Source: Eledone cirrhosa (Eukaryota). Taken from it: DNA of 64,000 bases. The notes under the pieces are model-generated. The model was given only the letters and a program-made list of their open reading frames with translations, did no database searches and was not told where the DNA came from. The stretch spans positions 24,428,001 through 24,492,000 of the forward strand of contig OZ024761.1 of assembly GCA_964016885.1 (NCBI GenBank), written 5' to 3'. This document shows, in pieces, positions 7,134 to 60,320 of the stretch. Each line of letters opens with the position of its first letter. The stretch's first letter is position 1. A program made the translations under genes and the position numbers.

Positions 7134-7199
7134 TATTTTATTATACATATTTCAAGGGCCACCAAGGCAAATTATGGTGCGCTTTCATCAGATAAAATA
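7134..7199 (-). ncRNA. Minimal type I hammerhead ribozyme (family H1)
   Basis: Minus strand TATTTTAT-CTGATGA-AAGCGCACCA...TGGTGGCCCTT-GAA-ATATGTAT-A|ATAAAATA: 8-bp helix I, long helix II, self-complementary helix III, AUA cleavage triplet. Confidence 0.85.
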
Positions 7200-7236
7200 C
7201 AATACAGATTTGTTTTATAAATAAATATTGACATAC

Positions 7237-7307
7237 CCGGAAAAAAGACAACCATAACGGTTGGAGCTTCCTGGAAGCTCCAACCGTTATGGTTGTCTTT
7301 TTTCCGG
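7237..7307. repeat. Perfect 35-bp-arm inverted repeat
   Basis: CCGGAAAAAAGACAACCATAACGGTTGGAGCTTCC-T-GGAAGCTCCAACCGTTATGGTTGTCTTTTTTCCGG. Confidence 0.95.
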
Positions 7308-7309
7308 TG

Positions 7310-7580
7310 TCTTTTCGAGAATGGTTCGTGTAAATGGGCCTTCTCTGTATACCATCCTGTGAGTAAAGAAGTGAAGGAGAGGGGAACACCTTCTCCATGT
7401 GCTCCCCGGGCAAAGGATTGCACACTTTTTCGGGGGCGTGTGCAACCCCCATCACGCCCCCTCCCTTTTGAGGTTGTTTTCGATTTTTTTCATTTTATAA
7501 CCTTTATACTCGGTTTTATGTAAACTCCCCCTTTGTATTTGTCCCTTCTTTTTATGCCTTTATGGTAAATAAAGAAATAT
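7310..7580 (+). mobile_element. 3' UTR of a Tx1/L1-like LINE ending in (TA)n
   Basis: Terminus TGTAAACTCCCC.TTTGTATTTGTCCCTTCTTTT..GCC.TT.TGG.AATAAAGAAAT shared with 22228 (rc), 37485-37565 and 60720-60755. Confidence 0.65.
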
Positions 7581-7788
7581 ATATATATATATTTATTTAT
7601 TTAGGTTTGTTGGTTTACCAATGGATAGAACTGGTCATTCCGTATGGTCAACCTTGATGTAATATTATGGAAAGCACTCAACGTATTGCAACTCACCCAT
7701 CTTCGTTTGTGTTGTTGGTGCGAGTACGGAGTTAATTATTATGAATTACCAAGATGCTGAACTGGTGTACTCCCTCGAAAGGTTTATT

Positions 7789-7846
7789 ATACTATGATCA
7801 TTTCAATGACCGGGTTCAGTATGAATCCGGTGACATCATCAGGTAT
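7789..7846 (-). ncRNA. Minimal type I hammerhead ribozyme (family H2)
   Basis: Minus strand ATAC-CTGATGA-TGTCACCGGATTCA TAC TGAACCCGGTCATT-GAA-ATGATCAT-A|GTAT; perfect palindromic helix III ATGATCAT. Tail 7605-7788 is related to 40880-41030. Confidence 0.8.
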
Positions 7847-8204
7847 TCGAAATATAGCAAAGGAATATGACAAAATCCATGGGGTTGAAAATCAGAGTCA
7901 TGAGGGCGACCGAACATTTAGCAGCTTCTACCCCAGTCGGCCGCCCTCAAGTGGTGAATATTAAGCCTACTTATGTCCATCTGGTGAAGGGGCTTAGACT
8001 TATAGTGTACCACCCCGTCAAAAACAGGGGCCAGCGTTGAAATCAGGTTAAAATCAAGCTGGTCATGCGTGGTAGAAAGGGCCGCAAAAAATATAATTTC
8101 GAAGAACATGTAACTCTTCAACAAAGCTATATATAGTATTATAGAGAGGGCGTCTGTATTGTATAATGTATGGACAGAAATTACGATTAACAATTAGAAA
8201 TGTA

Positions 8205-57165: not shown

Positions 57166-58529
57166 TATATATATATATATATATATATATATATATATAC
57201 ACACACACACACACACACGCACACACACACACAACTTGTATGCATCTAACACACTGGAGAAGACAAACTCTTTTGAGTGTGCGTGACGGTTACCCTTTTA
57301 AAATGTTATTTTCGTTCTGTGGCGGTCATTAAGGTGAATAAATTTGATTATTGTCATTATGGGAAGATGATATTGAATATGGTGATGATGGTATTGATAT
57401 TGATGATGGTGATGATGATGATATTGATATTGATGATGATGAAGAAGAAAACTAGAAGATTGAGCAATAAGATAGTCGTGCTTGTTGCTGGTCTTGTATT
57501 GTAGATGTTGGTGTTGATGTTGTTGTTTTTGTTGGTATTGGTGTAGATGTTGTTGTCGTGGTTGTGGTTGTCGTGGTTGTGGTTGTGGTTGTTGTGGTGG
57601 TCGTGGTGGTTGTGGTCGTCGTCGTCTTGTGGTTGTGGTGGTTGTTGTGGTTGTAGTCGTCGTTGTGGTGGTAGTGGTTGTGGTTTATGTGGTGGTCGTC
57701 GTCGTCGTTGTGGTGGTGGATGTGGTTGTTGGGGTTGTGGTTGTGGTCATCGTTGTTGTGGTGGTGGTGTTGGTTGTGGTTGTTGTGGTCGTCGTTGTTG
57801 TGGTGGTGGTGGTGGTGTTGGTTGTGGTTGTTGTGGTCGTCGTTGTTGTTGTGGTTATGGTTGTGGTCGTCGTCGTCGTCGTTGTTGTTGTCGACGTTGT
57901 TGTTGTCGACGTTGTTGTTGTTGTTGTCGACGTTGTTGTCGACGTCGTTGTTGTTGTTGTTGTTGTTGGTGTTTTCGATGTAGTAGATATTGTTGTTGTT
58001 GAAGATGTAGATGTCGTCGTCATTTTTGTTGTAGTTGTTGCTGTAGTAGTAGTAGCAGTAGTAGTAATATTAGTAGTTATTGTTGGTCTAGTTGTTGCTA
58101 CTCTTGTTGTAGTTGCTGCTGTTGTTGTAGTAGTCGCAGTAGTAGTAGTAGTAGTAGTAATAGTACTCGCAGTAGTAGTAGTAGTAGTAGTTGTTGTTGT
58201 TGAAGAAGAAGGGTTTTTCAACACGAAGATAATTAAAAATATATCTTAATGACGAGAATCGGAATAGAAAAAGACAGGAAATTAGCATTAAGAGGAAATA
58301 ATGCGAGGAAAATGAAGAGATCAAGTTTGGAAAACTTAGTGAGAAAGTTTTCCTTAATTATACTGGACAGACAATCGGTATCAATTAAAGATCTTTATAA
58401 GGTCTTTAGCTAAAAGTCCACCATTGATCTACGTCTCTAGCGACGATGAATCTACCAGTTGTCCGATCAATGGAACAGCCTGCTCGCGAAACCAATGTAT
58501 GTGTGTATGTGTGTATGTATGTATGTGTC

Positions 58530-59045
58530 TAGTCACTTTCGAGTGCGACTGGTAACCAGTACAACGTTTTCTCATGGTCCGGTCGTCGGCTATTAAACCG
58601 GGAACCTCACCAAGCCAGCTTGGTGAGAAGGGTGATATTTGGACACCCTCCGGGATGAAATACAAGGTTCGGCGGCAATGAGCGAAGGAACTCAGCAGAG
58701 TCAACGGCCATCCAAATAGTACTTTTTTTTTTTTTCACCTGGGAGTGAAAGGCCCCCATTTTTTTGTCCCAACATTCTGAGAGAGGGAAACCCTCAAAAT
58801 AAAATCTGCGGCTTCGGAAGCATCCGATGATGTTGACCAGTTCTCATTTTCAGGTAGTGTTTTCGATGTTGTGGGATTGGTTGAATGCAAGGCCTTTCCC
58901 CATTTAAAAAACCTTCAAAGCACAGGCATTGCTTGTTCAGGACATGTTACAGATTCGTGTGGCTGGCTGTAGGCTAAAGATGCACCACTTTCTGTAATAT
59001 GACAAGCGATTGCAACACTCTTTGCACAGTTTACAACCATCATAT
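58530..59045 (+). mobile_element. Diverged RTE-5'-UTR-like non-autonomous element
   Basis: Shares CTCATGGTC, CACCAAG..CTTGGTGAG.AGGGTGA, GAGTCAA.GGCCATCC, GATGATGTTGAC and GCACAGGCATTGC blocks with 16613-16992. Confidence 0.7.
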
Positions 59046-59080
59046 ATTTGTGTGTGTATGTATGTATGTGTATATATATA

Positions 59081-59680
59081 TGTCAGGTCACCAGTTGGTG
59101 CTACTGGTATCATGTATCCCAGTACAACCTGTCGCATGGTCGGTCGTTGGCGACTAAACTGGCAACCCCACCAAGGTTTCTTGGTAAAGAGGGTGACTTT
59201 GGACATCCTGCAGGACTAAAACAAAACCTGTCAAAGGGCAAAGGAGTTCTTAAGAGTCAATAGCCATCAAAAATCACCGGGAGAGATGACCCCTTAGCCT
59301 TTGTCAAGGCAGAATTCTAGGAGAAGGAAAACTCTGATACAACACCTGCAACCCTGATGGTATCCAATGATGTTGACTTGTTCTTCTTTTTGATAAATAT
59401 CATCTTGGTCAAGAGAGTGGGGCTGGCTTTGTGCAGTGCCTTTGCTCACTATAAAAGCTTCACGGCACAGGCATTGCTTTATATCTGGAGATCTCTCTGC
59501 ACTTGTCGTCACATGGTACCATGGGCCTAGCACTATGTGTCAATAATTGTCACAAGTGTAGTGTTTGTACCAGAGTTTTCAAGTCACTGGCTGGACTAAA
59601 GTGTCACACTAGTTCAGCGCATCGGTAGGGGTTCTCCTACATGGATATAAAGCAGTGGCCGTACTCGAAAACGATTGTGT
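59081..59680 (+). mobile_element. Non-autonomous bipartite RTE-derived element, copy 2
   Basis: Near-identical to 16613-17200; HKCSVCTRVFKSLAGLKCH zinc-finger remnant. Confidence 0.75.
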
Positions 59681-60066
59681 TGTTATTTCTGTTTACCTTT
59701 ACCCCCCACCCCACACACACGCACACATATATGCAGGCTATACACCCACATATACAAGTATGCAACATACAAATGCAATGCAATACAATTATATATATAC
59801 ATCAGTATGCCGTACATGCATGCTACAGAATGATATATACACGCCATACAAAAGACACAGGCTACACAAATATATACTTATATATATATATATGTATATA
59901 TATATATATATATCTATATATATATATATATATGTAGAAGTTATATTTAATTTGTTGGGATACAACAAGCAAAATATTTTTATAACTGATATAAAGCACT
60001 CAACAAATTATTGGAGTAAATATACAATATATTAACAAATGGAAACTATATTTATAAAACCATATT

Positions 60067-60132
60067 TATTTCATTATACATATTTCAAGGGCCACCAGAC
60101 CAAACTATGGTGCGCTTTCATCAGATAAAATA
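60067..60132 (-). ncRNA. Hammerhead ribozyme (family H1)
   Basis: TATTTTAT-CTGATGA-AAGCGCACCA...TGGTGGCCCTT-GAA-ATATGTAT-A|ATGAAATA. Confidence 0.85.
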
Positions 60133-60255
60133 TAATATAGGTTAGTTTTATAAATAAATATTGACATACCCTTAACAAATGCAACCATTTTGGTTGGAAT
60201 CTCCTGGATTTTTTAAGGGTATGTCAATATTTATTTATAAAACTAACCTATATTA

Positions 60256-60320
60256 TATTTTATCTGATGAAAGCGCACCATAGTTTGCTCTGGTGGCCCT
60301 TGAAATATGAATAATGAAAT
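60256..60320 (+). ncRNA. Hammerhead ribozyme (family H1; one helix III substitution)
   Basis: TATTTTAT-CTGATGA-AAGCGCACCATAGTTTGCTCTGGTGGCCCTT-GAA-ATATGAAT-A|ATGAAAT. Confidence 0.75.

Follow-up and report, generated by a model that had tools for sequence, protein, structure and literature searches.

Hammerhead ribozymes among the (TA)n tracts of an Eledone cirrhosa contig and their probable origin in Penelope-like elements

About 53% of the 64,000-nucleotide stretch of Eledone cirrhosa DNA analyzed here (the window; assembly GCA_964016885.1, contig OZ024761.1, positions 24,428,001 to 24,492,000 of the forward strand) is tandem repeat, and among its (TA)n tracts an initial annotation had marked at least ten minimal hammerhead ribozymes of about seven sequence types, here called A to G, in segments devoid of open reading frames (ORFs). 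The question posed by this locus is which elements carry these ribozymes and what role self-cleavage would play in their spread. The reading favored here, to which a probability of roughly 0.88 is given, is that eight of the ten motifs are the 5'-truncated 3' ends of protein-coding Penelope-like elements (PLEs), while the remaining two lie in ORF-less repeats likely mobilized by PLEs.

Ten hammerhead cores and the families that carry them

All ten hammerhead cores are present, far above chance: the CUGANGA, GAAA and UH elements occur at every annotated position together with helices I and II, and the helix III words read earlier match the sequence at all ten sites, the copy at 60256 carrying the broken palindrome ATATGAAT. 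These type I features support an assignment to the minimal, dimer-type hammerheads of the kind found in PLEs and retrozymes, types B and D being atypical. A strict type I scan recovers five to eight of the ten sites, depending on the slip allowed, and practically nothing in shuffled sequence (mean of 0.00-0.05 strict matches, maximum of 1, for 100 dinucleotide shuffles of the window at each of three block sizes); the reversed window gave no match at all. The scan always misses the site at 7789 (B), where a U.U at the base of helix II is family-wide, and the site at 17830 (D), where an A.C at the helix I core pair is specific to this copy, the mode of the family being A-U. No Rfam hammerhead match was obtained at three of the ten sites scanned individually, nor was one found among the best 150 of the 855 matches of a whole-window Rfam scan, which are dominated by TA-repeat look-alikes of microRNAs. 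Permuted type-SGC hammerheads (S-G-C block order), sought with one descriptor, were found neither in the window nor in 40 blind samples, namely 10-kb stretches at round-number positions of the genome, chosen blind. An 81-bp array at 4009-4389, which has CUGAAGA in each unit but neither GAAA nor helix II, was rejected by eye.

Each of the seven types corresponds to a multi-copy family, traced by a genome search per type, orientation of the copies and an upstream walk; a DNA search with the type C stub came back blank, and C copies were nonetheless found in other loci. In all families the 3' end is constant and lies in or near (TA)n, in many cases with an optional tail, and the 5' ends are ragged; family A measures 50 or 140 nt from the cut site to the 3' end, family G 40 or 135 nt and family B 50 or 200 nt. 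In terms of general layout, the features of PLEs are found here: partial tandems of the pseudo-long terminal repeat (pLTR), an inverted 5' copy, an optional tail and a microsatellite target. Types A, C, E, F and G, which make up eight of the ten sites, represent two Hydra-clade, two Neptune-type and one Nematis-type PLE, all inserted in (TA)n.

Family A, a Hydra-clade PLE, occupies four of the sites: a 3' end of the short form at 7070..7240 (minus strand, hammerhead 7134-7199, helix III ATATGTAT), a stub with tail at 48241..48503 (minus strand, hammerhead 48373-48437) and, near 60 kb, a divergent inverted pair made of a long tailed arm at 59934..60208 (minus strand, hammerhead 60067-60132) and a short arm with the mutated palindrome at 60209..60371 (plus strand, hammerhead 60256-60320). 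Its 628-aa frame contains DKT, YRDD, CxCX5C and CxxC..E..N..CxH, no internal CCHH being seen on inspection, and in 15 of 20 loci picked by their endonuclease a co-oriented ribozyme lies 1.3-2.4 kb downstream of it (12 recognized by the motif scan and three by a BLAST probe); among the homologues, an Argonauta protein ranks second of the two that are named to species. The Hydra-clade features (DKT, the CxCX5C linker, CxxC and CxH around E and N, plus a CCHH-free GIY-YIG domain at the C terminus) are all found in A and, as far as the endonuclease part is concerned, in G. This second Hydra-clade PLE is represented by a stub with tail at 56045..56370, its 5' limit not fixed (minus strand, hammerhead 56193-56259, ATGCGCAT); its endonuclease, 44-46% identical to that of A, lies upstream and colinear in 3 of 15 loci.

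The other three coding families combine a reverse transcriptase (RT), recognized by its motifs, with a CX2-5CxxC linker plus a GIY-YIG endonuclease (EN) at the C terminus. In family C, whose stub at 10420..10740 (plus strand, hammerhead 10477-10521, AGGACT) is a Nematis-type 3' end, in 12 of 12 loci (the query's own among them) the ribozyme stands 200-250 nt past the stop of the endonuclease, and the upstream Nematis-type frame is about 1,000 aa long. Family E, a Neptune-type PLE whose stub at 19430..20129 (minus strand, hammerhead 19580-19618, AGTACT) includes a 14-bp array (19622-20037) and an inverted core-less arm (20038-20129), places its ribozyme behind a Neptune-type frame in 11 of 12 loci, with a 775-aa open frame in five of six retrieved loci. 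Several of these 775-aa frames are free of stops (loci L267, L268, L269, L270, L271, L272), and the family is thus taken to be young. In family F, also Neptune-type, with a stub at 41080..41230 (plus strand, hammerhead 41102-41141, ACGT), an RT-EN frame is colinear over 1.5-1.9 kb upstream in 7 of 20 copies. Pfam reports GIY-YIG above its cut-off for C and E; for P0002 (the Hydra protein) and P0123 (the RT of family F) it gives no significant family, RT included.

Direct ribozyme-ORF-ribozyme tandems exist at three loci, one of family A with ribozymes 3,938 nt apart (L088) and two with spacings of 4,079 nt (L274) and 3,524 nt (L281). Adjacent same-family copies of the seven types are divergent in 44 cases, convergent in none and direct in three, overlapping loci being left unmerged, and three endonuclease queries returned 46,685, 38,949 and 25,762 first-look candidates, figures that are not copy numbers. 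Two candidates were set aside: an 819-aa "open frame" at C10 is TA repeat, and a piece of Hydra ORF upstream of E in locus L121 belongs to a neighbor, given that L129, L131, L132 and a protein search link E to the Neptune-type ORF.

The genome had been read as hosting a population of non-autonomous elements, and this description is unsupported: A, C, E, F and G are colinear with RT-GIY-YIG ORFs, their eight stubs being ORF-less because the 5' parts are truncated, and only B and D are non-autonomous. The accompanying expectation that the mobilizing partner lies elsewhere is supported, as no PLE protein remnant was found when sought within the window and the enzymes sit at other loci, where elements coding for them carry the same ends as the five families of stubs.

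Cleavage as dimers and the helix III palindromes

A looser scan of all loci gave 369 matches, and 23 clusters of these recur in at least two loci; after merging of 21 clusters, and with two low-quality clusters and all single-locus clusters dropped, at least 16 families remain. Their helix III words are 4-10 nt long and overwhelmingly self-complementary, 28 of 31 free symmetric positions of the 12 different words being Watson-Crick pairs (binomial P ~4e-12 at p = 0.3, relatedness ignored), a pairing that neither scan requires. In 15 of the 16 families helix III cannot be closed within a monomer (pair probability predicted at <0.01, against 0.61 in family M), and cleavage by these ribozymes is predicted to take place in strand-swapped dimers only. 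In the lineage comprising A, G, H and I, covariation upholds the helices: in an alignment of 15 copies with a structure imposed by the analyst, 9 of 21 pairs change on both sides (7 of 9 in helix II and 1 of 4 in helix III) and 96% of cells are paired, as compared with 37-53% when the structure is slid.

The Anolis PLE, for which AT-rich nicking, two internal start sites giving rise to the tail and protein-assisted ribozyme cleavage have been described (PMC11167929), provides a model for how these copies may have formed. By extension, the PLE endonuclease would nick TA-rich DNA, and reverse transcription would begin downstream of the ribozyme, at either of two internal sites, giving a tail or none, and would usually stop early, such that the ribozyme is retained and the ORF lost in most insertions; divergent inverted pairs would arise from priming on both strands. 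In a pLTR-ORF-pLTR or tandem transcript, two ribozyme copies would pair via helix III and swap their helix I arms, and the resulting strand-swapped dimer would cut out a unit-length RNA, perhaps helped by protein. The stubs of the window are themselves likely silent, since none of their ribozymes is close to a partner on the same strand, and 60067 and 60256 together would form one long hairpin.

Several points weigh against this account. An intact full-length frame was not seen for A, F or G, and the clades were assigned from motifs and motif spacing, not from a tree; the covariation set was hand-picked and its structure preset, and kinship among sequences can outdo shuffles. In terms of energetics, for B, C, D and F the active homodimer is predicted to have no advantage over two monomers (+0.2 to +5.1 kcal/mol). 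In published work, the minimal hammerheads of PLEs show weak cleavage, dimers included (PMC4209133), eight of nine Xenopus retrozyme dimers did not cleave (bioRxiv 10.64898/2026.07.22.740005), and Anolis ribozyme mutants still insert in vitro (PMC11167929). With cleavage this weak and mutants still able to insert, the ribozyme may be dispensable.

Taken further, the same low activity and ribozyme-independent insertion in vitro (PMC11167929), along with the atypical helix II base of B, D, E and K, could mean that the ribozymes are structural or protein-binding relics that never cut. This is considered unlikely, as the copies of all seven types deviate by 1.0-2.6% in core positions but by 3.5-11% in flanking ones, and the palindromy was not asked for by the scan.

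The initial annotation had further suggested that family-specific palindromes restrict dimer cleavage to partners of the same family. A heterodimer needs helix III and helix I to match, because the type I topology strand-swaps each helix I, and both swapped helices I of at least 4 bp can form in only 6 of 120 family pairs; the part of the suggestion that stands is thus that heterodimers are predicted impossible for the other 114. The part that does not is the uniqueness of the words, of which there are 12 in the 16 families: ATATGTAT, ATATATAT and ACTAGT are each common to two or three families, the ACTAGT-sharing families as well as I and J (both ATATATAT) being kept apart by helix I alone, and all six compatible pairs fall within A, G, H and I, the four Hydra-lineage families, A-G being the sole one among the seven types of the window. 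Specificity is predicted to be partial, with helix I doing much of the excluding.

Whether the palindromes were selected as a kin-recognition code that blocks cleavage by other families is a separate matter, and a distinctly doubtful one. The small number of compatible pairs and the variety of words would suit such a code, but words are shared, the compatible pairs are all among related, co-resident families, self-complementarity combined with drift gives the same map, and dimers formed in cis need no code. As a predicted property, specificity does not count as evidence of selection, and incompatibility is also expected from plain divergence under a self-pairing constraint. Bolder still, and very improbable, is the proposal that this is the densest natural ribozyme library counted, its 16 or more mostly orthogonal dimer "addresses" letting expressed PLE or retrozyme RNAs cut same-family stubs in trans, including stubs in host transcripts, and so form a network in which RNA cleavage is coded by family.

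The ORF-less families B and D, and hammerhead density

The two remaining sites belong to family B, whose stub with tail at 7570..8200 (minus strand, hammerhead 7789-7846, ATGATCAT) is the 3' part of an ORF-less unit of ~2.08 kb, and to family D, whose stub at 17505..17915 (minus strand, hammerhead 17830-17909, ACATTAGTGT, with the mismatched helix I core pair) derives from an ORF-less, retrozyme-like unit of ~0.43 kb and is split by a SINE-like repeat (SINE, short interspersed element) at 17566-17746. In B, sequence from downstream of the ribozyme is found again upstream, at 2,082 nt; in D, it is repeated at 429-438 nt in four of seven loci, at 405 nt in one and not in the other two. Neither family gave a PLE match by tblastn, the longest ATG frame in B being 89 aa, and no tandem of two complete ribozymes was observed in B or D, though both are ORF-less and longer than a unit. 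This more-than-unit layout is the one expected of non-autonomous PLE passengers or retrozymes. The motif YGTNGAGYR is found in the 3' tails of the Hydra-lineage families A, G, H and I and in those of B and D (for instance at 59934-60020 of the window), and was not found in the tails of C, E or F; its sharing suggests that B and D ride on a Hydra-type enzyme.

Some further properties of these families can be mentioned. A unit of family B (L163:1050-1660) is duplicated internally with a period of 304 nt; the duplicates are 74-76% identical, richer in G and C and differ by a few compensatory changes, and the unit has no Rfam match. In the predicted monomer fold of the family D ribozyme at 17830-17909, the CUGAUG core is paired to helix III, which may amount to self-silencing; we take the helix II of this ribozyme to resemble that of the newt satellite-2 ribozyme.

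That all seven types are non-autonomous retrozymes is very unlikely. The absence of ORF remnants from the window, the ORF-less partial tandems of B and D, true tandem arrays of 310 and 468 nt in 3 of the 40 blind samples and an internally deleted family C tandem of 2,114 nt (L279) would all fit, but in A, C, E, F and G, whose 5' ends are ragged, the sequence extends colinearly into RT or GIY-YIG frames, which refutes the idea for these five. The long retrozyme arrays lie in samples L217, L232 (310-nt period, with two divergent arms) and L242 (468-nt period).

The blind samples contain 62 motifs in 399.6 kb, 36 of them inside the three tandem arrays. Chance matches in AT-rich repeat DNA can be practically discounted, short and AT-rich as several helices are (A, F), given that 12 shuffles of the same DNA yielded two matches in all and that the families recur with covariation. 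Scaled to the 3.0-Gb genome, the count amounts to ~465,000 motifs (bootstrap 165,000-862,000), or ~195,000 (112,000-292,000) with arrays excluded, and since the descriptor misses three of the ten sites of the window, it undercounts. The figure of about one motif per 6 kb given earlier is accordingly typical of the genome and not special to the window. In comparison, and with other descriptors, 126,247 motifs are reported for axolotl and ~5,000 for mussel (PMC7229834), and 4,000 minimal motifs for coelacanth and 9,000 for X. tropicalis (PMC4209133). Should a full count bear out 65-155 motifs per Mb, the density would be well above published animal counts, the 126,247 of axolotl being spread over 28 Gb.

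Other repeats of the window include a fold-back family at 19194-19383 and 32028-32402, whose copies here have one end fixed in (TA)n and lack the CUGANGA core; it is probably another PLE end. Further stubs, core-less and likewise ending in (TA)n, belong to other repeats and lie at 31208-31371 and 60933-61114, which go together, and at 2641-2724 and 56693-56830, which resemble the family A tail. An abundant repeat of ~180 bp with a B-box-like word, presumably a transfer RNA-derived SINE, is found at 1549-1735, 17566-17746, 20212-20397, 34685-34832, 46421-46606, 47686-47863 and 57000-57163, and 22611-30579 is an 8-kb microsatellite derived from (TA), in which the G-strand skew is near-complete.

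Relation to known elements and significance

The PLE minimal hammerheads of Cervera and de la Pena (2014, PMC4209133) are similar in that each genome has thousands of them, belonging to several families, mostly single and interpreted as truncated PLEs that work as dimers, and in having an extra nucleotide after A9, a palindromic helix III and opposite-strand pairs 100-700 bp apart; helix III is longer here, and the estimated count is far higher, under a different descriptor. The PLEs of the Hydra clade, among them the Octopus bimaculoides element Hydra-1_Obim (Craig et al. 2021, PMC8557442), share DKT, the CxCX5C linker, the CxxC/CxH around E and N, insertion in (TA)n and a hammerhead at the 3' end, that of Hydra-1_oBim in File S2 having a self-complementary helix III. 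The likeness is judged from such features; A and G have other ribozyme sequences, and the family A unit is ~3.9 kb (one copy, inserts included) against <3 kb for Hydra-clade PLEs. The Neptune and Nematis clades (Fig. S2 of the same work) possess a CX4CxxC linker before the C-terminal GIY-YIG, as do C, E and F; by the spacer to the next Cys alone, E and F (long) are assigned to Neptune and C (short) to Nematis. Family D resembles animal non-LTR retrozymes (PMC7229834; Li, Clavereau and Pollet 2026, bioRxiv 10.64898/2026.07.22.740005) in its ORF-less unit of ~435 nt, its single type I hammerhead and its more-than-unit copies with PLE-like ends, and differs from them in that a full two-ribozyme tandem was not seen in the D loci examined. 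Family B, at 2.08 kb, has twice the length of the longest consensus in Li et al. (972 bp, obtained with periods capped at 1,000 bp).

Published work thus already covers dimer hammerheads of the minimal, palindromic kind in PLEs, their abundance as single truncated copies, the derivation of retrozymes from PLEs and a hammerhead-bearing Hydra element of an octopus, and the elements described here are themselves ordinary PLE debris. What is new is the density estimate, the clade assignment of the families, the long ORF-less family B and a testable map of dimer compatibility; a literature search, with Repbase/Dfam and the supplements of the 2026 preprint outside its reach, found no cephalopod hammerhead census or heterodimer test. 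With its many young families, 775-aa Neptune-type frames and non-autonomous passengers, the Eledone cirrhosa genome is well suited to testing the role of the hammerhead in PLEs, for which a matrix of predicted compatible and incompatible dimers is ready.

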